This document shows positions 1,575 through 35,200 of a DNA stretch of 64,000 bases, piece after piece. A program made the translations under genes and the position numbers. Below the pieces are notes generated by a model. The model was not told where the DNA came from. It saw only the letters and a list, made by a program, of their open reading frames with translations, and ran no database searches. The number at the start of each line of letters is the position of its first letter. Position 1 is the first letter of the stretch. The stretch lies in the IMG/VR virus record IMGVR_UViG_3300027631_000013. One strand, given 5' to 3'. Source of the stretch: an uncultured virus (IMG/VR IMGVR_UViG_3300027631_000013) (taxonomy: Duplodnaviria; Heunggongvirae; Uroviricota; Caudoviricetes).

Positions 1575-2336
1575 ATGAAAGTAGCAATAGTCCTTACTGG
1601 TATCGCAAATGGTAAAGTTGACGATACATCTGGGTTTGATATACCTAGAAACTTTAAAAACTGTTTCGATAATATACAAGAAAAGTTGATTGGGCCTTTT
1701 TCTGAAAGATATGAAACAAAGCTTTATATGACCACTTACGATATGTTCAATGCCAAAGAAGTGGTTGAAGCATACAATCCCCATAAATATCAGCTCTTGC
1801 CTTATGGTGGCTCTGCAGAAATTACCACCTATATCAAAAGTATGGAAATGCTGCTTGATGAAGATGTTGATTTTATTGTCGCCACCAGATTTGACATTTT
1901 ATTTAGAAGCAAGATTGTTGATTGGGATTTGAAGTTTGAAAAGTTTAATGTATGTTTTAAAGAAGGCAATTATAGTGTAACTGAATGCATTCCATTAAAC
2001 TTTACTGATTGTTCTATATTCATGTTCCCTAAGAAATATCTGAAATCTTTTATCATTGCTTTAAAACAAACATTTGCTTTCCACCCTCAACCGTTTTTCA
2101 GAAAGAATATGCACCCAGTTACTTTCAATTTCTCTAAAGTTATGGGGAAACATGCAGTTCATTTCCTATCTAAGAAAATGCATATTTCTTCACAAGAGAA
2201 CTCTTTCTTTTTCTTATATAGGCAAAAAGTTGATAAATATGGGTTGAACTATGTTTTGCCAGACCTAGATTTACCTCAAGTTTTAGATGATACACTACTA
2301 AGAAAATTCCCAACAATTGATAGAGTTAACTTATGA
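1575..2336 (+). CDS. Hypothetical protein, probably glycan-related
   Basis: MKVAIVLTG start and VDFIVATRFDILF motif, a type often seen in phage sugar clusters; overlaps the start of the dehydratase gene. Confidence 0.55.
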   Translation: MKVAIVLTGIANGKVDDTSGFDIPRNFKNCFDNIQEKLIGPFSERYETKLYMTTYDMFNAKEVVEAYNPHKYQLLPYGGSAEITTYIKSMEMLLDEDVDFIVATRFDILFRSKIVDWDLKFEKFNVCFKEGNYSVTECIPLNFTDCSIFMFPKKYLKSFIIALKQTFAFHPQPFFRKNMHPVTFNFSKVMGKHAVHFLSKKMHISSQENSFFFLYRQKVDKYGLNYVLPDLDLPQVLDDTLLRKFPTIDRVNL

Positions 2337-3286
2337 AAATTGTTTATATCACTGGTTGCTTAGGTTTTATTGGTTCTTACGTAACCACTCTATGCCTTGA
2401 AAGAGGTTGGTATGTTTATGGAATTGATAAATGCACCTATGCTTCAAACTTAAAAAAACTAGATTATTTCAATCAATTTGATAATTTTAAGTTTGAAAAT
2501 AAGGATATCCATGAGATAGACAGATTGGTTGATTGTGATTATATTATTAATACAGCTGCTGAAACTCATGTAGATAATTCAATAAGGAAAAGTGATGTAT
2601 TTTTTCAATCAAACATTTCTGGTGTTTATCATCTTGTTGAGTTATTGAGATCATATTGTAAGGAAAGTCAAGTTTTTCCAACTTTGATTCATTTCAGTAC
2701 AGATGAAGTTTATGGTGATATTAAATCTGGTGAGCATATCGAAACAGATTTACTAAAACCAAGTAATCCATATTCTGCTACAAAAGCTGCTGCAGATCAA
2801 TTAATTTTGGCATGGGGAAGAACTTACAACATTCCTTACAACATTATCCGCCCTACAAACAACTATGGAATTGGTCAGTATGTTGAAAAATTAATTCCTA
2901 AATCATGTAAATATCTCACTTTAAATCGTCAAATACCTTTGCATAATCACGGTCTACCCATCAGAAACTGGTTACATGCTAAAGACACTGCTAGGGCTGT
3001 TCTGTCTGTTATTGATTCTGGTGTTGAAAATGAAATCTTTAATGTTGCTGGAGGATTTGAACAAAGCAACATTGATACAGTAAAGAAAATTATTAATTCT
3101 TATTTTGGAGAGCAAATTGATGATTACGAAAAGTATTTAAACTTTGAAATATCAAGAGCTGGACAAGATGTAAGGTATGGAATTAATGATGATAAAATTA
3201 GAGCGTTAGGTTGGAAGCCTGAAGCAATTTTTGATGAAGAAATTAGTCATATTGTTAATTATTACAAAAAGGTTTTTGTATGGTAA
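2333..3286 (+). CDS. rfbB: dTDP-glucose 4,6-dehydratase (extended SDR)
   Basis: TGCLGFIG Rossmann motif, AAETHVDNS, STDEVYG, PSNPYSATKA (YxxxK), NNYG, EKLIP, RNWLH, RAGQDVRY. Confidence 0.9.
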   Translation: MKIVYITGCLGFIGSYVTTLCLERGWYVYGIDKCTYASNLKKLDYFNQFDNFKFENKDIHEIDRLVDCDYIINTAAETHVDNSIRKSDVFFQSNISGVYHLVELLRSYCKESQVFPTLIHFSTDEVYGDIKSGEHIETDLLKPSNPYSATKAAADQLILAWGRTYNIPYNIIRPTNNYGIGQYVEKLIPKSCKYLTLNRQIPLHNHGLPIRNWLHAKDTARAVLSVIDSGVENEIFNVAGGFEQSNIDTVKKIINSYFGEQIDDYEKYLNFEISRAGQDVRYGINDDKIRALGWKPEAIFDEEISHIVNYYKKVFVW

Positions 3287-4122
3287 CTAAAAGAGTTCTA
3301 ATTACAGGAGGGAATGGATATATTGCAAGAAATACCATTCCCTTTTTATCTGAATATGATTTAACAGTTTTGACAAGAGAAAAACTTGATTTGTTAGATT
3401 CTGAAAAAGTTAAAGAGTTTTTTCAAGATAAGGTTTTTGATACAGTCATTCACACAGCTACATATGGCGGGTACAGAACTCAAAAAGACGATCCAGAATG
3501 GGTTTATAAGAATGTAGCAATGTTTTACAATCTTATGAATTGTCAATATAGTTTTAAGCAAATTATCAATCTCTCTTCTGGGGCGCAATTTGACAGAAGA
3601 TACCCGATAGATGATACGAGATTTCTTCATCATTCTTTCCCAATAGACCCATATGGATTAAGTAAAAACATAATTACTAAAGTTGGCAGAGATTCAAACA
3701 AGTTTAAAAATTTCATCATTTACAATATTTTTAATCACGATGAACCAGATACCAGAATGATTAAAAATAACATAAAGAGATATATTAACAAACAACCATT
3801 GACTATATTTAAAGATCGCAAAGTTGATTTTTTCTTTATGGATGATTTTGTCACTTTACTCAAGCATTATATTGACAGTGATAAAACCTTAACTTTTGAA
3901 TTAGATTTGTGTTACTCTAGAAAATATTATCTTAGTGAAATTGCAAATATTATCAACAGTTTGGGTGAGCATTATGTTGATATTAATATAGAAAACAATA
4001 ATCAAGATTTGCCTTATATTGGTAATGGCGACAAAATAGTAAGAAGTAATTTACCTTTTATTGGCTTAGTCGATGGTATAACTCTTACATATAACAAACT
4101 ATTAGAGGCAAAGAATGTTTAA
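3280..4122 (+). CDS. NAD-dependent epimerase/dehydratase (SDR)
   Basis: VLITGGNGYIA, SSGA, PYGLSK (YxxxK). Confidence 0.85.
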   Translation: MVTKRVLITGGNGYIARNTIPFLSEYDLTVLTREKLDLLDSEKVKEFFQDKVFDTVIHTATYGGYRTQKDDPEWVYKNVAMFYNLMNCQYSFKQIINLSSGAQFDRRYPIDDTRFLHHSFPIDPYGLSKNIITKVGRDSNKFKNFIIYNIFNHDEPDTRMIKNNIKRYINKQPLTIFKDRKVDFFFMDDFVTLLKHYIDSDKTLTFELDLCYSRKYYLSEIANIINSLGEHYVDINIENNNQDLPYIGNGDKIVRSNLPFIGLVDGITLTYNKLLEAKNV

Positions 4123-5326
4123 AAAAGATTGCAGATGTTGCGAAGGAACTAATCTAAAGTCTGTCATTGATTTTGGAATTATCCCTTTAGCTAATAACCT
4201 TTTAGATTCTTTCATTGAAACAGAGAAATCTTTTCCCTTAGAACTTATGTATTGTGAAGACTGTCATAATTGTCAACTTTCATACAGTGTAGATTCTAAA
4301 GTTATGTTTGATAATTATTTGTATGTTTCATCTACAACTGAACAGATGAGACTTCACTTCAAATATGCAGCTACTAAAATCGTTGAAGAATACAAGCTTA
4401 ATTCAGACAGTTTAGTGGTTGAGATTGGTTCTAATGATGGTGTTTTTCTTTCACCAGTACAAGATAAAAATGTAAAAATCTGTGGAATTGAACCTGCTAA
4501 AAATATCTCTGCCTTAGCAAATGAAAAAGGCTTACACACATATAATGGATATTGCGACCAAGAAGCAGTAGGGTATGTTTTAAGTAATTTTGGTAAAGCA
4601 GATGTTGTCACTGCCTTCAATGTTTTTGCCCATGCAGATAATTTGAAACTAATTCTTGACAGTGCTTTTGAAATGTTAAAAGAAGATGGGGTCTTTATTG
4701 TTGAAAATCAGTGGCTTCTTAAAACAATGCACGACTTGACTTTTGACAATATCTACCATGAGCATTTTAATTATTGGTCAGTTACGTCTATGAATAATTT
4801 TGTTAAACGTAATGGATACTATGTGCAAAAGGTTGAACGTTTTAACACTCATGGTGGTTCTATCAGAGTTCATATTTCAAGAAAAGAAGTTAAAAGTGAT
4901 TCTTTGTATCATTTTTTAGAGCTTGAAAATTGCCATGGATTAACTACTTTTGAAGCATATGAAAGATTTGGAAAAAACATTCAGAAGTGCAAAAGAAACA
5001 CTGTAGCTGCTTTTGATGAATTACAAGCAAAATATGGCAAAGTTGTAGGTTATGGTTCGCCAGCTAAAGCCACTACACTATTAAATTATTTTGGCATTGA
5101 TCATAATTATTTGTCATTTATTATAGAAGACAATCCATTGAAGTTTGAAAAGATTGTTCCAGGTATCAAAGTTAAAATCACCAGTAAAGAATTGGCTGAA
5201 AAGATTGTTCCTAAAGCAATTGTTGTTTTTGCTTGGAACTTTTATGACGAGATCTTGAAAAACAATAAGGTTTTTACAGACATGAACGTACCGTTTTTTA
5301 ATATTAAGGATTTACAAAATGGCTAA
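4115..5326 (+). CDS. SAM-dependent NDP-sugar C-methyltransferase
   Basis: N-terminal Zn motifs CRCC and CEDC, VEIGSNDG, NVFAH, FDNIYHEH, THGGSIR, GYGSPAKATT, AWNF. Confidence 0.9.
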   Translation: MFKKDCRCCEGTNLKSVIDFGIIPLANNLLDSFIETEKSFPLELMYCEDCHNCQLSYSVDSKVMFDNYLYVSSTTEQMRLHFKYAATKIVEEYKLNSDSLVVEIGSNDGVFLSPVQDKNVKICGIEPAKNISALANEKGLHTYNGYCDQEAVGYVLSNFGKADVVTAFNVFAHADNLKLILDSAFEMLKEDGVFIVENQWLLKTMHDLTFDNIYHEHFNYWSVTSMNNFVKRNGYYVQKVERFNTHGGSIRVHISRKEVKSDSLYHFLELENCHGLTTFEAYERFGKNIQKCKRNTVAAFDELQAKYGKVVGYGSPAKATTLLNYFGIDHNYLSFIIEDNPLKFEKIVPGIKVKITSKELAEKIVPKAIVVFAWNFYDEILKNNKVFTDMNVPFFNIKDLQNG

Positions 5327-5996
5327 TGAATTGATGGGTGTAAAGTTTGATTTGTTTTGCCCAGCTAATAATTATGAGCAGCAGAACATTGTTGTAGAAC
5401 ATTTGGCGAATCAGGGTTTTGAGTGCAAGAAGTTTGATGGTGCCAATTATCCTTCATGGGCTAAAATTGTAAATGAATGTATGGAGCAATGTGAATCTGA
5501 CATCTTCTTTTACATCTCCCATAAAAACAGACCAAACAGAGAGCAAATAATTAAAACTATTTCTTTATTAAAATCTGGATATGGAATTGCTGGAATGTTT
5601 GATATGACTTTCCATGGCATTAATTTAGATGTAATTAGAAAACTGGGTCCATATGATGAGAGATTTTTAAATGGTGGATGGGAAGAAGTTGATATGTTTT
5701 GGCGATGCTGTGAAAATAATATCGCTGTGTATACTAATCAAGAATCCTATTACACTTGGGAAAAAAGCACTTGGCAATATGGTGGATTTCCTCATTACAA
5801 AAAGAAATGGTTAGAGCCACAAGGTGATAATTATTTAAATAGATTGTTAGACGAAGAGAAATATAATTATAATTTTGGTTCGTCTAAGAGTTCTAAGTTT
5901 TTACCTTGGACAGAATCTTTTATCCGAGGGCAAGAAGAGAATAAGAACAATTATAGAGATTGGAAGGTTATGAAGAAAAACTCTTTCTTCTTGTAG
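5319..5996 (+). CDS. Putative GT-A (GT2-like) glycosyltransferase
   Basis: SWAKIVN and IRKLGPYDERFLNGGWEEVD match the GT2 GxFDExF..ED pattern. Confidence 0.6.
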   Translation: MANELMGVKFDLFCPANNYEQQNIVVEHLANQGFECKKFDGANYPSWAKIVNECMEQCESDIFFYISHKNRPNREQIIKTISLLKSGYGIAGMFDMTFHGINLDVIRKLGPYDERFLNGGWEEVDMFWRCCENNIAVYTNQESYYTWEKSTWQYGGFPHYKKKWLEPQGDNYLNRLLDEEKYNYNFGSSKSSKFLPWTESFIRGQEENKNNYRDWKVMKKNSFFL

Positions 5997-6426
5997 GTGA
6001 TTCTTAATAATTTGTTGTAAAAAGTAATTGAAAGCAATTTCAATTTTGGTTTGCGGTGGCTTAACATCGTTAGATAATCAAAGGGATAAAGTAATTCTCT
6101 ACTACTCCCGCCATGAAAATGGTCAGTTAAGCAAGCCTAGTTTCTGTGAGTTTCAGGTCCGAAGCCTGGAAATATGGAGTAAGATGAGAACTATAAGGCA
6201 GCAATCTTATTAGTTCTAGCAAACATCGATACCTAAGAAACAAAGGGTAGTTACAGGGTCCGAGAATCACGGTTAAGGGCTTTGTAGCAGATTGAAAGGT
6301 AAAACGGAGTTTGTATACCGGATTAATCTTGAAAATCGGTCAAGTAATCTTCGTGGAGATGAAAGACATGAAGTGGGTTAGTTTTTGAGTAAAAAACTAA
6401 CAAGATGCGCCCACTTCGGTAGAGAA

Positions 6427-6522
6427 GGGCATAGCTCAATTTAGAGCACCGCACAAAAGCGTTGATGTTGGTTTGGAGTAATTAAAGTAACAAAAGCATA
6501 AGTTACAAATACCAACTGCCCA
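6427..6522 (+). other. Degenerate tRNA-like cloverleaf inside the large RNA
   Basis: GGGCA/TGCCC acceptor-like stem, TAGCTCAATTTAGAGC D-arm, CGC-ACAAAA-GCG arm, GTTGGT/ACCAAC T-stem with a ~38-nt insertion in place of the T-loop. Confidence 0.6.
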
Positions 6523-6768
6523 TAAAATTAGACGTGTCTTGCATTAGCAGTAAGCAGTGAATGTTGAGAGAAGGTTTGCATAATTTAGATTATATTCTCT
6601 TAAATGAATAGTTTGCGAACGCATATTCCAAATTATTCACTCTCAATAGAAGCTAATGTTAAACTGGACAGCCGCCAGTATAAAAGGACACTGCGTAGCT
6701 TGACATAAATGTGGACAAACACTTAGAGTATATGATGCGGATATTTTACAGTGTCACGAAGCTACACA

Positions 6769-6799
6769 CCCTGGAATTAGTCTCATTCCAGGGTTTTTT
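6769..6799 (+). terminator. Intrinsic terminator
   Basis: CCCTGGAAT (6769-6777) / ATTCCAGGG (6785-6793) followed by T6. Confidence 0.85.
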
Positions 6800-6816
6800 C
6801 ATTTTATAAAGTAAGT

Positions 6817-7620
6817 ATGTTAGCTACTTATTTAATTTCCACCAACAAAAATCGTCCACAACTAAAAGTTCCATTTGCTACAAAAATGGTTTGCTTGCAT
6901 AATTTTTTAGAAGTATTCAAAAACGAAAGAATATTTATTTTTGCTGATAATTGTGATGAAGAGACGTTAGACTATCTTTTATCTTTAGACTTGGAAATGC
7001 ACTCTGGAACTTATGGCTTATATCATTCTCAAGTAGCTTTATATGAAAAAATACTAGAGATGAAACTTGATCCTCTTGAAATTATTTATTGTTCTGAAGA
7101 TGATTATTTACACCAGAAAAATGCACCAGAAATTATCAAAGACGGCTTGACATTTGCAGATTATGTTACACTATATGATCACCCAGACAAATATTCAAAC
7201 TTATATCGATTTGGTGAAACAGTTAAAATTAGAAGATCTTTTTACACACATTGGAAAAACACAATATCTACTTGTATGACATTTGGTTTCAGATACAAAA
7301 CTTTATGCGAAGACATTAATATTTTAAGAGAATATCCAAAAACTCTAGACCATAATATGTTTATTAATTTGAAACAGAATAGCAGATATCTTTATTCTTC
7401 TATTCCTGGTCATTGTTGCCAGATGGATAGATTTATGAATTCTGATAAGGCTAACATTACAGAAAAATGGGCTATAGAAATCTTGATTAATGAAGGTTTA
7501 TCTCAGCTTACAGAACTAAAATTAAAAGAGTATGATAATATAAGTTTTGATGAAAATCAATTTTATCAGAAACTTTATTGGATTGATGGTGCTCTAAAAA
7601 GTGAGGAAAAAGATGAATAA
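6817..7620 (+). CDS. Putative GT-A fold glycosyltransferase
   Basis: IFIFADNC, IIYCSEDDYLH (DxD-like), DYVTLYDHPDKY, STCMTF. Confidence 0.65.
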   Translation: MLATYLISTNKNRPQLKVPFATKMVCLHNFLEVFKNERIFIFADNCDEETLDYLLSLDLEMHSGTYGLYHSQVALYEKILEMKLDPLEIIYCSEDDYLHQKNAPEIIKDGLTFADYVTLYDHPDKYSNLYRFGETVKIRRSFYTHWKNTISTCMTFGFRYKTLCEDINILREYPKTLDHNMFINLKQNSRYLYSSIPGHCCQMDRFMNSDKANITEKWAIEILINEGLSQLTELKLKEYDNISFDENQFYQKLYWIDGALKSEEKDE

Positions 7621-8056
7621 ATGGTTTTTTAGTTTAGTATTATTGTCATTTGGTGCATCGGCTTTTGCTCAAACTCCACAACTTGCAAATCCATTCAATT
7701 ATTACAAGTCGGACAATATTTTTAAGACAGATATTGATGTGAAGCCAAAGAAGTTACCTAACCTTAGCTTTAATGTCAAATCAGCAAATCTTAACGGAGA
7801 TTTGTCAAGATCAGAAGAGCATAAAGTTTCTGGACAATATAGCACTAAAGTATTCGGTGGTAATGCTGGATTAAAGTTCACCAATAATAAAGACTTTCTC
7901 ACACAAAGCATTAACCAAAGTGTTGATTTAAGTTATGGATTGAATGGTCCTTTTGCAAAATTATCTTTTACTGTCAATGCATTCAATAATCAACCACTCA
8001 TAGGTCAAGCAAAAAATAATACTTTAGCTGAGTTGAAGGGTACCATTTCTTTTTAG
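7613..8056 (+). CDS. Secreted protein, possible small outer-membrane beta-protein
   Basis: GAGGA RBS then ATG 7613; Sec signal MNKWFFSLVLLSFGASAFA|Q; alternating beta-strands; terminal Phe (ELKGTISF). Confidence 0.6.
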   Translation: MNKWFFSLVLLSFGASAFAQTPQLANPFNYYKSDNIFKTDIDVKPKKLPNLSFNVKSANLNGDLSRSEEHKVSGQYSTKVFGGNAGLKFTNNKDFLTQSINQSVDLSYGLNGPFAKLSFTVNAFNNQPLIGQAKNNTLAELKGTISF

Positions 8057-8079
8057 GTTAGCGTGTATAATTCAGTATT

Positions 8080-9003
8080 ATGAATAATATTGGAAATGGC
8101 GCAAGCTTTAAAAAGAAGAACAATCATACTCAAGATACCGAAAGAGCACTGACAGCTGGTATTTATTCTTGGATTGACGATAATAAAAATCTAGTTCTCA
8201 TTGCTCAAAGATTAGCTAACTTAACTCTTGAATTAGGTCTTTGTGATACTAATGCTCATAATCCATTCCAAATTGTCCCTACAGATCTTTTTGCAGAAAA
8301 TGGTAATCTGCACCATGAACTATTCCTAAATATTGATCATGCAGCTTGGGGTTATTTTAGAATCCAAATCGAGTCTGAATACAAGTTTAATGTAGTAGAA
8401 CCTAAGTTAATCAATTCTTCTGACACATCCTTAATTTGTATATCAGAGTTAGAAGTAGAACAATACATTAAGTCATTAGCTGAAACATTGGATAATCACT
8501 ACAAGCTTCTTGATTTGTTAGAAGAGAGTAAGTTAGAAGAAGCTCAAAGTATCTTGGATGCAGCTTTGTCCACTTACCATCATTCAATTATCGAGCCCTT
8601 ATCTAATATCAAAACAATTGTAAGCTTCTATAATGGGGAAATTGTAATAAAGGCTACTAATGATGAGGCAACTACTCAATCTATCAAATCTATGGAAACT
8701 AGGTATGATTTAGCCCTTTTACATCCTGAAAACTGGGTTGTTACAAAGAGTGATGGAATCAACGGTCAAGAATGGTTATCTTCTCATTTGAAGTCATTCT
8801 TTGTAGTTGAGAGTAAAGCTGCATCCCTTCTTTATCTTTATCAAAAACTTATCAAAGATGCTGGTTTTAAGTTGATTGTCCACACTGATTCCGTAGAGCC
8901 TGAAACTGATTTGACTGGAGAAGTTTTAAGAGATGATGCCTTAAACTTGACACTCGTTAGACCTGTAATTCATGCAACAAAATTAGAAATACAAAATGGA
9001 TGA
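8080..9003 (+). CDS. Hypothetical protein
   Basis: 307-aa ORF preceded by GTGTATAAT (-10-like); no motif recognised. Confidence 0.7.
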   Translation: MNNIGNGASFKKKNNHTQDTERALTAGIYSWIDDNKNLVLIAQRLANLTLELGLCDTNAHNPFQIVPTDLFAENGNLHHELFLNIDHAAWGYFRIQIESEYKFNVVEPKLINSSDTSLICISELEVEQYIKSLAETLDNHYKLLDLLEESKLEEAQSILDAALSTYHHSIIEPLSNIKTIVSFYNGEIVIKATNDEATTQSIKSMETRYDLALLHPENWVVTKSDGINGQEWLSSHLKSFFVVESKAASLLYLYQKLIKDAGFKLIVHTDSVEPETDLTGEVLRDDALNLTLVRPVIHATKLEIQNG

Positions 9004-22485: not shown

Positions 22486-23204
22486 TATTGAGGTACCTCC
22501 AATCCGCCTGCCCCTGCTATGACAAATCTACCTTTAAATGAATCATAATTATTTTTTATGTCTGCTGCTGTTAAGGCACTTCTATACAGTCTTACTATCG
22601 CTATATTTCCAGCAAAAGTATTAGTTGCGCCAGAATTATTTCCTATAAAATCATTGCCAGTATATGAAGATGGAGATGTAATACTGCTTGAGCCTATACT
22701 TGCCCCATTAACATAAAAAGTTGCAGTGCCAGAGCTAAATGACAAAGCTACTTGTTGCCATGCATTCAAAGTAATACAGTTTCCAATTCTTGCAGAGAAA
22801 CCAGATACTGCGTATGTGTTTAACTGTAAGCCTGCTGTTACTGTGCTGTTATCCAATGAAAATATAAAACCAGTAAGTGAGCCTGATGAATGTTGAAATA
22901 TTCTTCCAGAGTTGCCTTCACCATAACCTGTAGGGTAAATCCATGCTTCACATGTCCAAGAAGTAGTAACATTTCCACCATTTGTTGTACCCAAGTTGAC
23001 CAAGCTTGTAGTTCCATTAAAAGTTAAAGCTAGAGTGCCACCAGATCCAGTTAAAGTACAAGAAGTTAATGCTCCTACATTATTAAATGTTGAAACATCA
23101 AACCAGTTAGAACCACTACCAGGATATGATCTAACATTTGCGGCATCTACATTTAAACATAGCAATTCATATGAAGTTATTGATGGATTATAAAATTGTC
23201 CCAT
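22485..23204 (-). CDS. LamG/concanavalin-A-like domain protein
   Basis: DAANVRSYPGSG.WFD, TCEAWI, FYVNG, YRSALT..DI..NY; second Met taken as start. Confidence 0.8.
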   Translation of the reverse strand: MGQFYNPSITSYELLCLNVDAANVRSYPGSGSNWFDVSTFNNVGALTSCTLTGSGGTLALTFNGTTSLVNLGTTNGGNVTTSWTCEAWIYPTGYGEGNSGRIFQHSSGSLTGFIFSLDNSTVTAGLQLNTYAVSGFSARIGNCITLNAWQQVALSFSSGTATFYVNGASIGSSSITSPSSYTGNDFIGNNSGATNTFAGNIAIVRLYRSALTAADIKNNYDSFKGRFVIAGAGGLEVPQ

Positions 23205-26200
23205 TTTCATACTCCACTACAAGTTTAGGAATGTCAATTCTTTCTGCCCAAACTGTAAAGAAACAATTTATTGGGTTGTCGTTAAAGTCATTAATATGGA
23301 TTTTATAATCTTCAATCTTTTCAACATAAAGTATTGAATTTGTTTTACCAATTGGGGTCAAGGTAACTGTTAATGATTCTGGGTGTACTAAGCCTGTCCA
23401 ATAATCAGGTGTTTCAATTACATATTCGTCTTTCAATATGCCTCTTACATATACGCCGTTTTCTGGGCCTTCTAAGGAACCGTATCTTAGTTTCCAGTTG
23501 TTCTTAAGAGGGTGGTTAATCACGAAGGATTTGTTAGTAGCAGAAATCTCACCTTCAATCTCTAATTCGTAAGCAGGGTTAGTTACACCAATACCCACTC
23601 TAATTTGGGTAGTTCCTATACCATTAACAATAAAGAATGTATTGCCAATTGCAGAACCACCAAAGACTCTAACTGTATTTGTTGTGCCTGATGTAGAATA
23701 TTCAAATCCTGTAGCATCTTTTACGGAAGAACCAGTGCCAGGATAATATGCTAATCTTGCTGATGTACCAGAAGCAACCGTACCAGCACCACCGCCACTA
23801 GCACCAGGAGCAGACCAATAAAGCTGACCACTAGCACCAGCAGTAGCTAATACACTTCCAGCAGTTCCAGCAGATGTAGGAAGAATAAAAGTTAAATCTG
23901 AGGTTGCATTTGTTGCACCAGTTAACGCAGTGTAAAAGGTCTGGCCTGTATTATAAAATGTTAGAGCTGCAGGAGAATCTACAAGTATAGAACCTAAACT
24001 ATCTATCTGTAAAATCCCACCATTAGTTGACTTGAGTGCTTGAGTTGTAGGACCTAAAGCCCAATATACATCTCCGAAGCTGCTTTTAAACTGAACACTA
24101 TCAACACTTGCTCCATTTGTTGCATTTACTAATAATGCAGGTAAGGAACCCTGTGCTAACAATTCCATTGAAGCGGCAGCAGTATTTATTGATACTCTAT
24201 TGTATGAAGCAACTGAAGCCCCAGTTCCAGGATAGTATGCAACTAAAGATGCAGCTGAAGGCACAGCAACTGTTCCACCTCCACCGCTACCAGTAGAATC
24301 AACTTGCCATGAAGGAGCAGTACCAGCCCCATTAGATTTTAAAACTGATCCTGCAGTGCCAGCCGCAAGTCTAGTTAAAGCTGTGGTTGAGGATGCATAA
24401 AGGATATCACCAATTGCATATGAAACTTGTCCAGTACCACCATTTACAGCGGATATTGCAGTACCAGCCCATGCACCACTTGTAATTGTGCTATTTATGT
24501 GTGAAACGCCAGATATTGAGGAAAGGTTAGCTGTAGCAGTCCATAAGCTTCCTCCAATACCAACACCTCCAGTTACTACTAATGCACCAGTTGAAGTAGA
24601 TGTTGATGTTGTTGTGCCATTAATATTAGCACCTGAAGCAGTGATTGTATTACCAAGGGCGCTAACTCCTGAAAGAACATATGCAGGAGTACTACCAATA
24701 GATGCGTTACTTCTAGAACCAGTTAAGAAAATTGTAGATGTAGTATCAAGTACCACGTTGATATTTGCTGAGTTAGTGGCTGTTCCTGCACTTCCAGCAT
24801 TAGTAGCTGTTGTAGCTGAACCAGCATTTGTAGCTGTACCTGCACTACCAGCGTTAGTGGCTGTCCCTGCTGTACCAGCGGATGTTGCTGTTGTGGCTGA
24901 CCCTGCTGTTACTGAAGTTCCAGCTGAACCTGCTGTTGTAGCAGTAGTGGCTGCGCCAGCAAAACCAGCAGAGGTAGCTGTTGTAGCAGAACCAGCGTTT
25001 CCTGCGTTGGTTGCTGTACCTGCTGTACCAGCAGAAGTTGCAGTAGTAGCTGATCCGGCACTTCCTGCGTTAGTGGCCGTACCTGCTGTTCCAGCAGATG
25101 TAGCGGTGGTGGCTGCTCCAGCAAATCCAGCATTAGTTGCTGTTCCAGCTGTTCCAGCTGAAGTTGCAGTTGTAGCTGATCCAGCACTTCCAGCATTAGT
25201 AGCAGTACCTGCTGTACCAGCAGAAGTTGCAGTAGTAGCAGATCCAGCACTTCCAGCGTTAGTAGCAGTTCCTGCTGTACCAGCAGAAGTTGCAGTGGTC
25301 GCATTACCAGAGAATGTTGTTGCTGTTATTGTATTACCAAGTGCAGAAACACCTGAAAGAACATAAACTGCTGTGCTTCCAATAGAAGCATTACTTCTTG
25401 AACCAGTTAAGTAAATTGTAGAAGTGGTATCGAGTACTACATTGGTGTTGGCTGAATTGGTGGCTGTTCCTGCTGAGCCTGCATTAGTGGCTGTCCCTGC
25501 TGTACCAGCAGAGGTTGCAGTGGTAGCAGATCCCGCAAATCCAGCATTCGTTGCTGTTGTAGCAGAACCAGCATTACCAGCATTAGTGGCGGTAGTTGCT
25601 GAACCAGCAGTTACTGATGTTCCAGCACTTCCAGCATTAGTGGCTGTTGTAGCAGAACCTGCAGTTACTGAAGTACCAGCACTTCCTGCATTAGTAGCTG
25701 TAGTAGCGGATCCTGCTGTTACTGATGTTCCAGCCGAACCAGCATTAGTTGCGGTTCCTGCTGTCCCAGCAGAGGTAGCTGTTGTAGCAGAACCAGCATT
25801 ACCAGCATTAGTAGCTGTAGTGGCAGACCCTGCTGTAACTGAAGTTCCTGCAGAACCTGCTGTAGTAGCTGTAGTGGCTGCGCCTGCAAAGCCAGCATTA
25901 ACTGCTGTACCTGCTGATCCAGCTGATGTAGAGGTTGTAGCATTACCTGATAATGCACCTGTAACAGTTCCATTATTAAGAGTTACACCAGAGATGGAAG
26001 CAAGATTAGATGTTGATGTCCATAAACTACCACCAATACCAACACCACCAGATACAATTAAAGCGCCAGTGGTTGAATTAGTTGAAGCTGTGGAGCCTTG
26101 AATCTTTACATCTTGACCAAAGTAGGAAGTTTTAGCAATACCCGCTCCACCAGAAACAGTTAAACCTCCAGTGGTAGTTGAAGTAGAGGCTGTGGATCTA

Positions 26201-29200
26201 AGAACAGATACTCCTGTTCCACCAATTGTTAGTTCAACATCTAATGGAGATTCAAATGTATGAGTAGTATTTGTTCCATATGTAGCATAATATATATTAC
26301 CATCATTTATAATACTTAATCGATTAGGGTTAGAAGAATAAGATTGATCAAGTACAAAGGATGCATAAATATCAGCATTATTTACAATAGTAAGGCCAGA
26401 ACTTTTGGTATCAGGCCCATTATATGTATTTTTTAATGTAATCTGGCAATTACTTCCACCAATTCCAATTTCTGTTGTTGGAAAATCAATAGGTTTACCT
26501 ATATACAATCTTCCACTAATTCCAACACCACCAGCAACAGTTAAAGCGCCAGTAGTTGGAGTAGTGGAAGCAGTGGAAGAAGATATAATTGTATTACCAG
26601 AGAATGTTTTAGCACCGGCAATTGTTTGTGCTCCTGTTGTTACTAAACCTCTATTAGAACCTGAAGCATCTGGAATGTTAAATGTATGCGTGGAAGTGGA
26701 AGAAGATATATTAAAATCAGTTCCAGAAGTACCAGTAGCAAATGTCTGAGTAGCTGCAGTAAGGCTATTTAAAGTTGTAATTGCTGAAACTGAAGCTATA
26801 GTTGTCCATGCAAGACCAGCTGAACCATTGGTATATAATACTTGATTAGCACTTCCATCAGCAACAGGTAAAGTGAAAGTAACATTAGCAGAAGAAGAAC
26901 CTGCCTTTAATCCAGTGTAGAATGTGTTAGCAGAATTAAAGAATCTTACTTCTTTTTGTGATAATACTTCTATGTTATCTGCTACATCAATGGTTCCAAA
27001 TACATTTAAACTTCCACCAATACCAACACCGCCTGTAACTACTAATGCACCAGTAGTAGTAGAACCAGAAGCAGTAGTACCTTGGATAAATACAGATTGA
27101 CCAAAGTAGGAAGTTTTTCCAATTCCAGCTCCACCAACTAATGTTAAAGCTCCTGTAGTTGATGATGTAGAAGCAGTGGTTTGTGCTATGGAAACTCTTG
27201 TTGAATCTAATTTTAATGTAGTGTTTGGAGAACCTGTATATAAAAGGATGGTTTTAGCTGTACCTGCTCCCAGATTTACATCTCCGTAAGAATTACTAAT
27301 AAATAATAATTGACTAGCAGTAGAACTATTTGAATTATTATAGCCTATAGAAGCAAGATTGCCTACAACATCATTACCAAAAGATAATATTGAATAGCTA
27401 TAATTTACAGGACTAGTATTTTGTATGAGAACTGATACGTCACTAAGATCATTGCTTGAGGCAAAGGCTGCTAATGTATTAGATGAAATACTTGTTGCAG
27501 GTTTACCTCCAACGTTCAATTGCCCACTAATACCAACGCCACCAGTAACAACTAAAGCACCAGAAGTTGGAGAAGTAGAAGCAGTAGAGCCAGTAATTCT
27601 TAAAGCTGATGCGCTTAATGTATTTCCAAGAGCACTAACACCTGAAAGGACATATGAAGGGGTATTGCCAATGGATGCATTACTTCTAGAACCAGTTAAG
27701 TAAATTGTAGAAGTGGTATCAAGTACTACATTTGTATTAGCAGAGTTTGTAGAGGTTGCAGCGCTACCAGCATTAGTTGCTGTTCCAGCACTTCCAGCGT
27801 TAGTAGCAGTACCTGCTGTACCAGCACTTGTAGCTGTAGTAGCACTTCCTGCAGTGACTGAAGTCCCTGCACTACCTGCATTAGTGGCTGTCCCTGCTGT
27901 TCCAGCAGATGTTGCAGTAGTGGCTGCACCTGCAAAGCCAGCATTAGTAGCAGTTGTAGCGCTACCTGCAGTTACCGAAGTACCAGCACTACCTGCAGTT
28001 ACAGATGTTCCTGCAGATCCAGCATTGGTGGCTGTACCTGCTGTACCAGCAGAAGTGGCTGTAGTAGCAGACCCAGAACTTCCAGCAGTAATTGAAGTAC
28101 CAGCAGATCCAGCATTGGTAGCTGTACCAGCTGTGCCTGCAGAAGTAGAGGTTGTTGCAGAACCAGCGTTACCATCTAAATCAGCAACTAAAACACCCTT
28201 AGTACCGCTTACAACTTCTCCAGAAATTGTAGCATCTGTAAATAATGCAAACTTACTTACAGATTGATCCCAGCCAAAGAACCCAGTTTTGCCCGTACCA
28301 GAAACATAATAGAATGCCACACCACGATCTTTTGAATCAGCGGTATTTGGAACTGTACCACCAATAGCTGTGCCAATAGTAATAATTGGATCTACTACAG
28401 TTGATACTGTTGAATTAACTGTTGTAGTGGTTCCATTAACTGTAAGATCTCCAGTTAAAACAAAATTACCACCAACATTTAAGTTTCCTGTTACACCAAG
28501 ACCACCAGAAACAATTAAAGCACCTGAAGTCGATGTTGTTGAATTGGTATTTGAACCTAACCTAGTGTCTTTAGGAACAACGAATAATGAAGATGTTACT
28601 GATATACCACTACCAGAATAAAGCGATGTAGTAGTATTGGCATTATCATTGTCTAATAATGCTAAAAAGTCAGTTCCAGCAAACGTCTGGGTTCTTATAG
28701 CTTCAGCTCTTCCAGCATTAACCGCTGTACCAGCACTTCCTGCATTGACAGCAGTACCTGCCGAACCAGCATTAGTAGCCGTTCCAGCTGTACCAGCATT
28801 AGTGGCAGTGGTTGCTGATCCTGCACTACCAGCATTAGTAGCAGTACCAGCTGTGCCAGCTGAAGTTGCAGTAGTAGCTGCACCAGCAAAACCTGCGTTA
28901 GTGGCTGTACCTGCTGTTCCAGCAGAAGTAGCAGTTGTGGCTGACCCAGCACTTCCTGCTGTGACAGACGTTCCAGCAGAACCTGCATTAGTTGCAGTAC
29001 CTGCTGTTCCAGCTGAAGTGGCAGTTGTAGCGGAACCAGCACTACCAGCATTAGTGGCTGTTGTTGCGTTACCAGAGAATGTTGTTGCTGTTATTGTGTT
29101 GCCTAAAGCAGAAACGCCAGACAATACATAAACTGCTGTATTTCCAATTGAGGCATTACTTCTTGATCCAGTTAAGTAAATTGTAGAAGTGGTATCGAGT

Positions 29201-32200
29201 ACTATATTTGTATTAGCGGAATTAGTGGATGTAGCTGCACTACCAGCGTTAGTAGCAGTTCCAGCTGAACCAGCATTAGTAGCAGTAGTAGCAGAGCCAG
29301 CAGTAACTGAAGTTCCTGCGCTACCAGCATTAGTAGCAGTTCCTGCTGTACCAGCATTGGTTGCAGTGGTAGCAGAACCAGCACTACCAGCGTTTACTGC
29401 TGTACCAGCGCTACCTGCTGTTACTGATGTTCCAGCCGAACCAGCGTTTGTTGCTGTTCCTGCTGTTCCAGCAGAGGTTGCTGTTGTAGCAGAACCAGCG
29501 TTTCCAGCATTAACTGCTGTACCAGCGCTACCAGCAGTTGTAGAAGTAGTTGCATTACCAGAGAAAGTAGTTGCTGTAATTGTGTTCCCAAGAGCACTTA
29601 CACCAGAAAGGACATAGATTGCTGTACTTCCAATAGATGCATTGCTTCTTGATCCAGTAATGTAAATTGTACTTGTTGTATCTAGAACAATGTTAGCATT
29701 TGCAGTATTAGTGGCTGTACCAGCTGAACCAGCTGTTACAGATGTTCCTGCAGAACCAGCATTGCTTGCTGTAGTGGCTGCGCCAGCAAAACCTGCATTC
29801 GTTGCTGTTGTTGCAGATCCTGCAGAACCAGCATTAACTGCCGTTCCGGCACTTCCAGCAGTGACAGAAGTTCCTGCGGAGCCTGCGTTTGTAGCAGTAC
29901 CTGCTGTACCAGCAGAAGTAGCAGTAGTAGCATTACCACTAAACGTTGTAGCGGTAATAATGTTATTACCAATTGTAATTCCAGAACCAGTAGATAATTG
30001 AGTGGAACCAGAAGCTGTATTTAAAACAGTACCAACTAAATATCTAGTTGCAGTTGAAGCATCAGTATTGACTAAAGCAGCAGATGTAGCTGTTCCTGCT
30101 ATATTAGATGTCCAACCTAAAGCAGCTGAACCATTGGTATATAATACTTGATTAGCACTTCCATCAGCAACAGGTAATGTGAAAGTAACATTTGCAGAAG
30201 AAGAACCTGCTCTTAATCCAGTGTAGAATGTGTTTGCAGAATTGAAGAATCTAACTTCTTTTTGTGATAATACTTCAATATTATTAGCAACATCAATAGT
30301 GCCGAATACATTTAAAGAACCACCAATTCCAACACCACCAGAAACAGTTAATGCTCCAGTAGTTGTAGAACCAGAAGCAGTGGAGCCTTGAATCTTTACA
30401 TCTTGACCAAAGTAGGAAGTTTTTCCAATTCCAACACCACCGACTACAGTTAATCCACCTGTTGTTGAAGATGTAGAAGCTGCGGTTTGTGCTATGGAAG
30501 CTTTTAATGAAGTAAATGTTAATAAATTGACCCCACCAATATTTAAATAGACGATTCTACCTGTACCTGCCTGCAGATACGTATCTCCAGACGTATTATA
30601 AATAAATAGTGCATTAAGATAACCAGGGCCACTCGTGCTACTAAAATATTGAAGACCTGCACTATTGTATAAATTATTAGCTAGTCTTAGTCCAGCATTA
30701 GCAAATTCATCGGTGCTAGTATTTTGTATATCAACATATACGGCGGGTCTACTTCCAGCAAAACCTGCTATACTATCAGTGTTAAAAAATGTACTAGCTA
30801 TCCCAACATTTAATACTCCACTAATTCCAACACCACCAGTAACAGTTAAAGCACCAGTAGTTGGAGTAGTAGAAGCAGTGGAGCCTTGAATCTTTACATC
30901 TTGGCCAAAGTAGGATGTTTTAGCAATACCAGCTCCACCAGAAACAGTCAGAGCACCTGTGGTTGAAGATGTGGATACAGTGGTATGAAGGACAGATACT
31001 CCATTTCCACCAGAAAATTTGTGAAAACTGGAAGACCCCGACCCTGCTTCATAAACTATTTCTCCTGGACCGATTATTTCTAAAGAATTATTATAAAAAG
31101 GAACTACATTATTTCCATTCCAGAATCTTATTTTCGCCTGAATGCCGAGGTTATCCACAAAGAGTAGTTGGCTATTGGACAACATATCACTTCTGGTATT
31201 TTGTATACGTACTGTTAAACCATCTGAGTCACTGGCGCTACCAGAAAAATTTGCTACTACATTATATGGGTTATAACTAGTAGATGCAATTCCAACATTT
31301 AATCTTCCACTAATACCAACACCGCCAGTAATAACTAAAGCACCAGTAGTTTGATTAGTTGAAGCAGTGGAACCTAGAATCTTTACATCTTGACCAAAGT
31401 AGGATGTTTTAGCAATACCCGCTCCACCAGATACAATTAAAGCGCCTGTAGTTGAAGATGTGGAATCTGTGGAGCCAGTAATATTTAAACCTGATGCGCT
31501 TAATGTATTACCTAAAGCACTTACACCAGAAAGAACATATGAAGCAGTATTACCAATGGATGCATTACTTCTTGAGCCAGTAAGGTAAATTGTAGAAGTG
31601 GTATCAAGAACTACGTTAGTATTAGCAGAGTTTGTAGCTGTTCCTGCGGAACCAGCATTAGTTGCTGTACCAGCGCTTCCAGCGTTAGTAGCAGTACCTG
31701 CTGTTCCAGCGGAAGTAGCTGTAGTAGCACTTCCAGCTGTTACTGATGTTCCAGCACTACCAGCATTAGTGGCTGTCCCTGCTGTTCCAGCTGAAGTAGC
31801 AGTAGTGGCTGCGCCAGCAAATCCAGCATTGGTTGCCGTTCCGGCACTACCGGCTGTTACTGAAGTACCAGCACTACCAGCATTAGTGGCTGTACCTGCT
31901 GTTCCAGCAGATACAGATGTTCCTGCGCTACCTGCATTTACAGCAGTTCCAGCAGCACCAGCAGTAGTAGCGGTAGTAGCAGAACCAGCACTTCCTGTAA
32001 TAGAACCAGTAATTGTAGAAGAGAATGTTTTGGTTCCTGCAATAGTTTGTGTGCCAGTAGTAATTAAACCCCTAGCTGTTGCAGAAGCGTCAGGAATATT
32101 AAATGTGTGAGAAGAGCCTGTTGAAGTTATCGCAAAATCAGTTCCAGAAGATCCAACTGCCAAAGACTGATAAGAAGCTGCTATGCCATTAAGATTTGTT

Positions 32201-35200
32201 ATTCCAGCTCCTGTAGTAGAAACTGTAATTGAACCAGCAGAGTTAGTAATTAAAATACCACTACCAGCAGTAAGAGTAGATTTAATTAATGAGTTGCCAG
32301 TAGATGAACCAATTAAAAGTTGTCCATCAGTATAGGATATTTGCCCTGTACCACCATAAAGAACACCGATTGTTGCTGCGTTCCAAGTACCAGAAGCAAG
32401 TGTACCTACAGAAGTTAATGAGGATGAAACTACAGATGTGCCAAGAGAAATAGCATCTAAAACCTTGGCTCCATTGATTCTATAAGTATATCCAGTTGAA
32501 GCATTTATATCTCCAACTACATGTAATTTAAATGATGGATTTGATATACCAACACCAACATTACCAGCAAACTCAGCCATAGAAACTGTAGCATCTGCAT
32601 TTGCTCTAATTAATGGGATACCAGAAATATCATTAACAGAGAAAATCCATCCAGTATTTAAAACAGGTGTGATAGAGAATAATTGGCCTTGTGCACCATC
32701 AAAAGAAAGTGAGTTATCTTCTAGTACATTTAAGAATATTGGGTTGCCTGTTTGACCAATAAATGCCATAGAAGGAATGGTTGTTATTCCTGTGGTTCCA
32801 ATTTGTGCTTGGTTAAATACTAATCTTCCACTGATTCCAACTCCACCATTAACAACAAGTGCGCCAGTATTTACAGATGTTGATGCAGTGGAAGAATTAA
32901 CTACTAATTGGCCTGTACTTGGATTATAGAAAAGATTGGAATTAGTGAGGATATTTGATGAGCCAGATGTTGCAGATGTAAACGAAAGGAATCTAGATGC
33001 ATTTGTTGAGTCTGCAGTAATTGTAACTGAACCAGCAACAGTTGCTGTACCTGCTGAGCCAGCGTTGGTTGCTGTACCAGCGGATCCTGCAGTGACAGAA
33101 GTTCCTGCGGAGCCTGCGTTTGTAGCAGTGCCTGCTGTTCCAGCTGAAGTGGCTGTAGTAGCAGCACCAGCGAATCCAGCGTTAGTAGCTGTTCCAGCTG
33201 TACCAGCTGAAGTGGATGTAGTTGCAGCACCAGCAAAACCAGCATTTACTGCTGTTCCAGCAGACCCTGCAGTGACAGAAGTACCAGCAGATCCAGCGTT
33301 AGTAGCAGTACCAGCCGTACCTGCCGAGACAGATGTTCCAGCACTTCCAGCATTAGTAGCTGTTCCTGCTGTTCCAGCAGAAGTAGCAGTAGTAGCGTTG
33401 CCTGAGAAAGTAGTAGCTGTTACAGTATTACCAAGTGCAGATACACCAGATAATACATATACTGCCGTGCTTCCTATAGAAGCATTACTTCTTGATCCAG
33501 TTAAGTAAATTGTTGATGTGGTGTCAAGTACCACATTTGTATTAGCTGAATTAGTGGCTGTACCAGCTGAACCAGCTGTTACAGATGTTCCTGCAGAACC
33601 AGCGTTAGTAGCAGTACCTGCTGTTCCAGCAGATGTAGCAGTGGTAGCAGATCCAGCATTACCAGCATTGACTGCTGTACCAGCACTTCCGGCAGTTACA
33701 GATGTTCCTGCGGAACCAGCGTTAGTAGCGGTACCTGCTGTTCCAGCGGAAGTAGCAGTAGTTGCAGCACCAGCAAATCCAGCATTAGTGGCTGTACCTG
33801 CTGTCCCAGCAGTTACTGAAGTTCCTGCGGAACCAGCGTTAGTAGCAGTACCTGCTGTCCCAGCAGAAGTAGCAGTAGTAGCAGCACCTGCAAAACCAGC
33901 GTTAGTTGCTGTTCCTGCTGTTCCTGCAGAAGTGGCAGTAGTAGCAGAACCTGCATTGCCATCAAGGTCAGCAAAAATAGTAGCCTTAGTTCCAGATACT
34001 ACCTCACCGCTGATAGAAGCGTCAGTGTAAAAGGCATATTTACTTGCTGATTGATCCCAACCAAAGAATCCAGTTTTGCCTGTACCTGAAAAATAATAGA
34101 ACGCCAATCCTCTGTCTTTAGAATCTGCAGAGTTTGGAACAGTACCGCCCGTGCTTGTTCCAATAGTTATAATTGGGTCTACAACGGTTGAAACTGTGGA
34201 GTTAACTGTCGTAGTGGTTCCATTAATTGTAAGATCGCCAGTGAGAACAAAGTTACCACCTACATTTAAGTTTCCAGTTATACCTACACCACCAGAAACA
34301 ATCAATGCTCCTGAGGAAGTGTTAGTAGATTGAGTATTGTTCCCAATCCTAGTATCATCTGGTACGACCAAAGATGTTGCAGTTACAGATATTCCACTAC
34401 CAACAAACATTGACTGAGTGGCACTTGCTGTATCTGAACTAGACAATGTTAAATAGTTAGTACCAGTAAGTGCTTGAGTTCTAATTGCTTCAGATCTACC
34501 AGAGTTAGTAGCAGTACCAGCAGATCCAGCATTGGTTGCAGTACCTGCCGAACCAGCATTGGTTGCAGTACCTGCTGTTCCAGCAGATGTAGCAGTAGTA
34601 GCAGAACCAGCGCTTCCTGCATTGGTGGCTGTACCAGCACTTCCAGCAGTTACTGAGGTACCTGCCGAACCAGCATTAGTAGCTGTACCAGCTGTTCCAG
34701 CTGAAGTAGCTGTAGTTGCAGAACCAGCGCTTCCAGCATTAGTAGCTGTACCAGCTGTTCCAGCTGAAGTAGCGGTAGTGGCTGCGCCAGCAAAACCTGC
34801 GTTTGTTGCTGTACCAGCAGAACCTGCAGTTACAGAAGTACCTGCACTACCTGCATTAGTTGCAGTACCAGCTGTACCAGCTGAAGTAGCTGTTGTTGCA
34901 GAACCAGCACTTCCAGCATTAGTGGCTGTACCTGCTGTTCCAGCAGAAGTAGCTGTAGTGGCTGCGCCAGCAAAACCAGCATTTGTAGCTGTACCAGCAG
35001 AACCTGCAGTAACAGAAGTACCAGCGCTACCAGCATTAGTAGCAGTACCAGCTGTACCAGCTGAAGTAGCAGTAGTTGCTGCGCCAGCAAAACCAGCATT
35101 TGTAGCTGTAACTGCTGTACCAGCAGATGTAGCAGATGTAGCAGTTCCAGTAAGATTGCCAACAAAACCACTACTTGCAAAAACTTGTCCTAAAACATGT

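Follow-up and report, generated by a model that had tools for sequence, protein, structure and literature searches.

A cloverleaf-shaped segment in the middle of a large non-coding phage RNA raises the question of whether it is a tRNA, what is left of one, or a structural part of the RNA around it. The segment lies at 6427-6522 on the + strand of the window, by which we mean the whole stretch of DNA analyzed here, 64,000 nucleotides from an uncultured virus (IMG/VR record IMGVR_UViG_3300027631_000013) with a G+C content of about 33%. Both the module and its parent RNA are contained in an ORF-free gap at 5997-6816, and the parts discussed below are as follows.

6059..6800 (+): parent RNA, about 740 nt, ornate and non-coding, with an approximate 5′ limit, possibly at 6035
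6403..6409 (+): 5′ strand of the enclosing helix, pairing with 6533-6539
6415..6426 (+): small near-invariant hairpin or motif CTTCNGTAGAGA, directly 5′ of the module
6427..6431 (+): 5′ strand GGGCA of the outer ‘acceptor-like’ stem, pairing with 6517-6521
6432..6433 (+): UA linker at the site of tRNA U8-N9, UA in window-like forms
6434..6447 (+): D-like arm GCTC-AATTTA-GAGC, 4 bp with a 6-nt loop, A at both ends and no GG
6450..6461 (+): ‘anticodon-like’ hairpin CGC-ACAAAA-GCG, 3 bp with a 6-nt loop
6462..6466 (+): 5-nt linker TTGAT at the site of the tRNA variable loop, UUGAU or CUGAU in window-like forms
6467..6472 (+): 5′ strand GTTGGT of the T-like stem, pairing with 6511-6516 and adjoining the outer stem (0-nt linker)
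6473..6510 (+): 38-nt insert that replaces the T loop, with an inner hairpin
6511..6516 (+): 3′ strand ACCAAC of the T-like stem
6517..6522 (+): 3′ strand TGCCC of the outer stem and an unpaired A, with no CCA after it
6533..6539 (+): 3′ strand of the enclosing helix, pairing with 6403-6409
6768..6800 (+): intrinsic terminator of the parent RNA, a stem at 6768-6794 followed by a T run

The succession of arms given in a preliminary description of the locus, from GGGCA-TA-GCTC to ACCAAC-TGCCC-A, is present letter for letter at 6427-6522 (+), and the departures from tRNA that it listed are all correct: the outer stem has 5 bp, the D-like loop lacks GG, the ‘anticodon’ loop has 6 nt and the T loop is replaced. 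When the module is folded alone, the minimum free energy (MFE) and centroid structures both consist of the 5-bp outer stem enclosing three hairpins, a four-way junction, at -26.3 kcal/mol against -17.2 ± 2.95 for dinucleotide shuffles (z -3.08, with none of 200 as good). The junction is also kept in the 806-nt MFE structure of the gap. In the inner hairpin of the 38-nt insert, GTAAC (6487-6491) can pair with GTTAC (6502-6506) as originally described, but both the MFE structure and the closest of the divergent relatives favor GTAAT(T), 6478-6483/6501-6506. The D-arm signature does have the look and the arm order of a tRNA, but the string alone is not beyond chance, as the pattern TAGCTYA-N3-9-ARAGC matches once in the window against 0.50 expected and at least once in 38 of 100 shuffles. 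A complementarity between the D-like loop and the loop of the third arm, noticed by eye, was dropped, the sequence being too AU-rich to tell.

Homologs were collected with core motifs taken from RNA-library contigs aligned to the region. A scan of metagenomes requiring two exact core motifs, beyond which more distant members may exist, some perhaps with a real tRNA, returned at least 80 loci from lake, freshwater and estuary assemblies. True homologs were also found on two large phage records of 316 kb (L014) and 358 kb (L023), at full length and with nhmmer E values of 1e-46 to 1e-48; the other 43 of 45 single-motif matches in viral contigs were chance matches in coding DNA. The 83 sequences (the window, the two phage loci and 80 metagenome loci) include 69 of full length, 63 of them unique, and many alignment rows are near-copies from different metagenomes. 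Excluding nine loci that end before the domain, the domain census covers 74 loci, that is, the window and at least 73 homologous loci on contigs of large phages and of lake and estuary metagenomes. An exact 35-mer of the domain had no match in viral contigs, and blastn of the 820-nt gap against phage records had none either. Among 185,579 species genomes there was one match, to a 5.8-kb contig (L136) of a lake metagenome-assembled genome titled Rickettsiaceae bacterium; mis-binning of a phage contig is a likelier explanation here than a host relationship.

The parent RNA is a previously undescribed ornate RNA of large freshwater and estuarine phages, without a family in Rfam 15. No Rfam 15 model matched the whole 64 kb at gathering level; at E≤10 nothing relevant matched 5700-7000, with GOLLD, ROOL, OLE, raiA and HEARO included, and at E≤5 no model, GOLLD included, matched 12 homolog loci. 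The open-access and bioRxiv literature searched contained no description of it. The RNAalifold consensus of the 63 unique homologs has about 30 helices, most of them with compensatory changes, and the terminator stem covaries, with such changes at 10 pairs. That the RNA lies on the + strand follows from its G-U pairs and from the terminator, which is on that strand. A conserved ORF was sought across the homologs and none was found, the longest ORFs measuring 39-98 aa and varying in place and strand. Column identity among the unique homologs is 0.77-0.90 over most of the RNA, with the 5′ half better conserved than the 3′ half. It is lowest at 6440-6520 (0.35-0.40), and a second poorly conserved stretch, at about 6560-6650 (0.38-0.63), is enclosed by a covarying helix, 6554-6559/6689-6694. 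The module at 6427-6522 is one of two variable modules of the parent RNA. In one RNA-library contig, 119 foreign letters replace 6548-6685, in the second variable stretch.

RNA libraries of six studies have contigs with near-identical copies of the parent RNA, and 53-78% of the sampled words are present in the six libraries; 14 DNA runs, which may be the source of the sequence, were left out of this support. Contigs of four RNA libraries cover 6073-6765, and those bridging the borders of the module run over 6084-6756 (X18), 6293-6757 (X19), 6084-6478 (X16), and 6346-6484 and 6455-6740 (X15), contigs from which no ends, strand or level can be read and in which DNA carry-over is possible. In these four libraries, module and big RNA form one continuous sequence. 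The flanks at 4000-6003 and 6839-9000 are almost uncovered in the four RNA runs, and such missing cover is no argument for a discrete transcript. Position 6084 is the start of two contigs from two studies, several contigs end at 6740-6765, and in one X15 contig adapter letters stand directly before 6073, so that the library fragment ended there. Such starts and ends, and the adapter at 6073, are at most weak hints of transcript borders, because they were compared in RNA runs alone.

Upstream of the RNA in the window lie sugar-nucleotide genes at 2333-5326 (+), namely a 4,6-dehydratase-like gene, an epimerase/reductase and a C-methyltransferase, and the unannotated ORFs on either side differ from those beside most homologs. 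The neighboring 225-aa and 448-aa ORFs yielded no relatives, the neighboring 267-aa ORF led to one weak locus only, and eight loci with relatives of the methyltransferase carry no homolog of the RNA there. The ORF families flanking the homolog loci had no informative Pfam or PHROG match, a weak DUF3431 being the sole one. Elsewhere in the window, 23188-36726 (-) is a single ORF of 4512 aa with a G+C of 0.36-0.50, mostly above 0.42, against about 0.29-0.40 for the rest, and 41792-63786 (-) holds a paralogous array of virion/tail-fibre-like genes with phrog_24074 and phrog_8510 repeats (PHROG matches). Relatives of these virion/tail-fibre-like genes are found in cyanophages and Flavobacterium phages, and the two large phage records (G001, G002) have comparable arrays at a distance of 25-30 kb from the RNA. 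A link to the bS21 phages of PMC9723584 was rejected, as bS21 is absent from both large phage records; the accessible part of that article makes no mention of non-coding RNA.

Comparison across the homologs allowed us to interrogate the fold of the module itself. A covariance model of 6400-6545, built from 10 window-like sequences, matched 74 of the 74 sources searched. In the covariation alignment (A4), which was fitted to the structure of the model and so leans towards it, 95.4% of 899 cells are paired (74 loci, 49 distinct rows) against 82.9% in shuffles, with none of 500 shuffles reaching this value. Both sides have changed in 18 of 25 pairs, against about 11 in shuffles, and sliding the partners by 1-3 columns leaves 29-48% paired. 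Compensatory changes are present in all five helices; helix 1, which encloses the module, is 100% paired, and helix 5, the T-like stem, is 97.7% paired with both sides changed in 6 of its 6 pairs. The outer stem is found as GGGCA/UGCCC, GGGUA/UACCC, GGGU/ACUC, GAGU/ACUU or GGGA/UCCC, the fourth pair of the D-like stem is C-G, U.G or U-A by lineage, and the third arm is closed by GUUGGU/ACCAAC, GUUGGA/UCCAAC or AGAUGAAG/CUUUAUCU.

Folding without an alignment sorts the sequences into lineage forms. All 18 distinct forms of 68-70 nt and 93-95 nt give the outer stem and three hairpins, the same topology arising from unrelated third-arm sequences; in the 70-nt variant, a 9-nt loop, AUUUGACGG, replaces the 38-nt insert. 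Two distinct 114-nt forms (L085/L069) keep the first two hairpins and fold as a multibranch structure with a longer, branched third arm, and the other 26 distinct sequences fold as a single long hairpin on the outer stem. The cloverleaf of the preliminary description is thus conserved in homologs as a covarying junction at 34 of 74 loci (18 window-like, 2 long and 14 compact), though 40 loci have the single long hairpin on the same outer stem instead; among unique full-length RNAs the division is 28 to 35 of 63. The successive linkers measure 2, 2, 5 and 0 nt in the window form and 2-3, 1-3, 3-8 and 0 nt over all junction forms. The letters of the UA linker also fit the 70-nt forms, but there the MFE structure parses AUA in 7 of 8. 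None of the D-like loops (AAUUUA, AAGUUA, AUGACGA and others) contains GG.

The helix said to enclose the module had to be replaced. It was described as 6363/6540, but 6363-6370/6533-6540 is only 71% canonical, and the homologs support 6403-6409/6533-6539, with 441 of 441 cells canonical and compensatory UA/UG/CG and CG/UA/UG changes. The two 5′ strands, 6363-6370 and 6403-6409, can pair with one 3′ strand at 6533-6540, of which the homologs keep the 6403 helix only. Between this helix and the module, the hairpin 6415-6418/6423-6426 of the alifold consensus is 91% canonical without covariation, and its columns are invariant in A1/A2/A3. Taken as a whole, 6427-6522 is a real, selectively maintained four-way junction, peripheral and lineage-variable, in the middle of the RNA. 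The broader picture of a big structured RNA with a cloverleaf-shaped module inside, sharing its arm order, UA linker and D-arm look with tRNA, is upheld.

Is the module then a tRNA? Cloverleaf arm order and linker lengths agree with one, and the other defining traits do not. In place of a 7-bp acceptor stem with a 3′ CCA there are 4-5 bp in all 18 parsed junction forms, followed by A and then UAAAAU, so that CCA is not encoded. The elbow made by G18G19 and a 7-nt T loop is lacking, a T-loop-like UUUGAC being found only in the 70-nt form, within a 9-nt loop. A 5-bp anticodon stem with a 7-nt loop and U33 is lacking as well. ARAGORN found no tRNA in the whole 64 kb and none in the 74 homolog loci, searched over up to 3 kb each, with none within 1.5 kb of the RNA; an intact tRNA at the site of the module, which the preliminary description had thought homologs might carry, was found in 0 of 74. 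It likewise found none in 47 distinct domain sequences at thresholds of 100, 90 and 80%. At 70% there are 5 matches, all antisense, and 66 of 470 shuffles also match. In metazoan-mitochondrial mode at 95%, the compact form is called in 5 sequences on the sense strand, as are 33 of 470 shuffles, and at 90% 252 of 470 shuffles match; these calls show that the compact form has the dimensions of a cloverleaf, nothing more. The relaxed search for a tRNA thus gave nothing above shuffle background on the sense strand, apart from the mitochondrial mode on the shorter variant. At E≤10 the Rfam tRNA model matched neither 6415-6535 nor the compact L014 595-690, and blastn of the domain, its 5′ half and the compact form against 50,697 phage records matched no tRNA gene. 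The two large phage records carry 5 and 9 tRNAs, tens of kb from the RNA and at least about 25 kb away even if the records are circular. The module is a changeable structural module recognized by no tRNA detector, and not a working tRNA.

There are several possible explanations for such a module. On balance we lean towards an architectural one, by analogy with the variable linker of GOLLD or ROOL: the module would be a branch or spacer between two conserved halves. We prefer it because the short ‘anticodon’ hairpin has a loop that varies in near relatives and because there is no elbow motif; ‘architecture’ is here what we infer from the variability of the module. The module stands on a conserved platform, consisting of the helix 6403-6409/6533-6539, the small invariant hairpin and the covarying 4-5-bp outer stem. 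Depending on the lineage, this platform carries a window-like cloverleaf of 93-95 nt whose third arm is long, a compact one of 68-70 nt, a branched form of 114 nt or one long hairpin. The content of the module can vary freely, in the extreme being reduced to a single hairpin. The module may fix how the two conserved halves are angled and spaced, or may be a lineage-specific contact surface, comparable to the GOLLD/ROOL variable linker or to an rRNA expansion segment; it would serve neither as tRNA nor as anticodon decoy nor as processing signal.

A different question is where the module came from. One tentative answer, possible although we would not count on it, is that it is the relic of a captured tRNA that was inserted or fused into the central linker and decayed to a structural module, with the hairpin forms as later reductions. 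Such an origin is compatible with the structural reading; of the captured tRNA turned structural module proposed earlier, the structural module is borne out and the tRNA origin is possible but unproven. Traits kept beyond the needs of a generic junction are the UA linker, the A-flanked D-like loop, a third arm that joins the outer stem directly, and a stack of 11-12 pairs in the outer and T-like stems. The tRNA-like linker pattern of 2, 1-3, 4-5 and 0 nt, with a 4-bp D-like arm preceded by UA, argues for the relic, as does the 68-70-nt form, which has the size of a tRNA and 12 stacked pairs in the outer and T-like stems. When the domains were compared with 13 tRNAs of the two related large phage records, the best score of the 70-nt form was 15, with the tRNA-Lys(UUU) of a related phage, against 8.2 ± 1.7 for dinucleotide shuffles, 2 of 500 of which reach the score. 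The two have AUAGCUUA..AAAGCA in common, and the loop GAUUUGAC of the 70-nt form has GAUUCGAC as its counterpart in the tRNA. The 5′ half of the window form scored 10.5 against 5.5 ± 1.3, with 0 of 500 plain shuffles reaching it. Against a tRNA origin, the full-length window domain does not resemble tRNAs significantly (52 of 500 shuffles reach its score), the Rfam tRNA model stays below its reporting floor on the window and the 70-nt forms, and chance alone predicts 0.5 occurrences of the D-arm string per window. Furthermore, the 74 homolog loci hold neither an intact nor an intermediate tRNA, and the distance of at least about 25 kb to the real tRNAs of the two related phage records also counts against the relic.

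The history of the forms bears on the same question. With the module left out, a quick IQ-TREE tree of the RNA (657 columns, midpoint root only) has one clade of window-like and long forms, all of them junctions, and another of compact junctions and hairpins, both with an SH-aLRT of 100. Compact forms stand on basal branches of the mixed clade. Junction versus hairpin needs 4 changes on this tree, and a single hairpin clade is rejected (p-AU 0.011, for a group named after the tree was seen). Since the deepest split has junction forms on either side and the mixed clade has them at its base, the junction may be ancestral, which suits a tRNA relic. With the midpoint root, which as the only root of the tree is a point against the relic, the junction looks ancestral, in which case the hairpin would have several origins or have been passed on by recombination. 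Precedent for tRNAs in such a place is provided by GOLLD, whose linkers sometimes hold them according to the available part of a preprint (bioRxiv 10.1101/2024.12.08.627333).

A more specific version of this history strikes us as improbable. It holds that the parent RNA belongs to a new class of ornate phage RNAs that is independent of GOLLD, that the module in its central linker is what remains of a decayed tRNA, and that the compact 70-nt form still presents a 12-bp minihelix with a T-loop-like UUUGA cap to a tRNA-binding host or defense factor. If it were true, a tRNA or a mimic of one in the variable linker would be a recurrent design principle of giant phage RNAs.

We think it very unlikely that the module works as a functional tRNA mimic, that is, a decoy for anticodon nucleases or for another tRNA-binding host or defense factor, and the suggestion of such a decoy in the preliminary description finds no support. 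Its attraction lies in the cloverleaf shape and the D-arm look, and in the phage setting, in which tRNA-directed defense is plausible. Against a decoy, the ‘anticodon’ stem has 3-5 bp across the junction forms, with a loop of 3-6 nt that differs in close relatives (ACAAAA, AUAAAA, ACACAA, AAAAAA and AAUCAA, with AACUG, AACAG, AACAA and AUA also found) and offers no U33-like position. The set of hairpins is entirely absent in 40 of 74 loci. With GG missing from the D-like loop and no T loop in the window, the elbow is lacking.

It is likewise most unlikely that the module is an RNase P/Z processing handle by which the big RNA would be halved or a small RNA released. The outer and T-like stems do stack to 11-12 bp in the manner of a tRNA minihelix, and an unpaired A follows the outer stem; against this role, the RNA-library contigs of four studies run through both 6427 and 6522, for which reason excision is not indicated (partial processing is still compatible), and the proposal of a processing handle is left unsupported. 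A T-loop/D-loop elbow is missing here too, the outer stem has just 4-5 bp, and the hairpin forms lack the shape. Finally, a chance fold without selected structure, for which the AU-rich sequence and a D-arm motif within chance might speak, is scarcely credible in view of the z of -3.08, the compensatory changes found in every one of the five helices, the much lower values of the slid and shuffle controls, and the one topology reached from unrelated third arms.

The architectural reading can be set beside known systems. The module resembles canonical tRNA and the reduced metazoan mitochondrial tRNAs in arm order, UA linker, 4-bp D-like stem, a variable-loop-like linker of 4-5 nt and a third arm adjoining the outer stem. 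Unlike tRNA, it has an outer stem of 4-5 bp, no G18G19, an ‘anticodon’ stem of 3-5 bp closing a loop of 3-6 nt, no T loop of 7 nt in the window form and no CCA, it is embedded in a longer RNA, and both ARAGORN in bacterial mode and the Rfam tRNA model are silent on it. As a tRNA-shaped part of a larger non-tRNA RNA it is also like the corresponding domains of Y RNA (YrlA), tmRNA and viral 3′ TLS elements. Those mimics keep a T-loop/D-loop elbow or an aminoacylatable 3′ end and are recognized by tRNA enzymes, whereas our module is internal and its sequence has no elbow motifs or such a 3′ end.

The closest likeness is to the ornate phage RNAs. In the accessible part of the preprint (bioRxiv 10.1101/2024.12.08.627333), GOLLD is described with a variable linker that sometimes holds phage tRNAs and with a better conserved 3′ region. 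As far as that text goes, the parent RNA is like GOLLD in being large (>700 nt), ornate, phage-encoded and found in lake and marine samples, with two conserved parts flanking a variable region whose content is tRNA-related. It differs from GOLLD in having no Rfam match, in a module that is not a bona fide tRNA, in the lack of any tRNA within 1.5 kb in 74 loci and, on the same partial text, in that here the 5′ half is the better conserved one. The architecture may be GOLLD-like: a variable module lies between conserved halves, with no real tRNA in it. ROOL, to the extent covered by the available text, is likewise an ornate RNA of phages and prophages, an abundant one, with an unresolved variable linker; it is often near tRNA islands, whereas the parent RNA is not near tRNAs, and no Rfam family matches it.

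The wider question addressed by this locus is what the ornate phage RNAs GOLLD and ROOL do and what the tRNAs within or beside them mean, to which the parent RNA adds a third large ornate RNA, one without an Rfam family. That tRNA-related content occurs in the linker of ornate phage RNAs is a theme already known. What is new is a covariation-proven, tRNA-shaped module that is not a tRNA and that swaps between cloverleaf and hairpin in related phages. The locus also counsels caution, in that ‘tRNA-like’ should not be read from a D-arm string alone. The compact cloverleaf, the expanded cloverleaf and the hairpin form a natural series that is suited to asking whether the tRNA shape matters.
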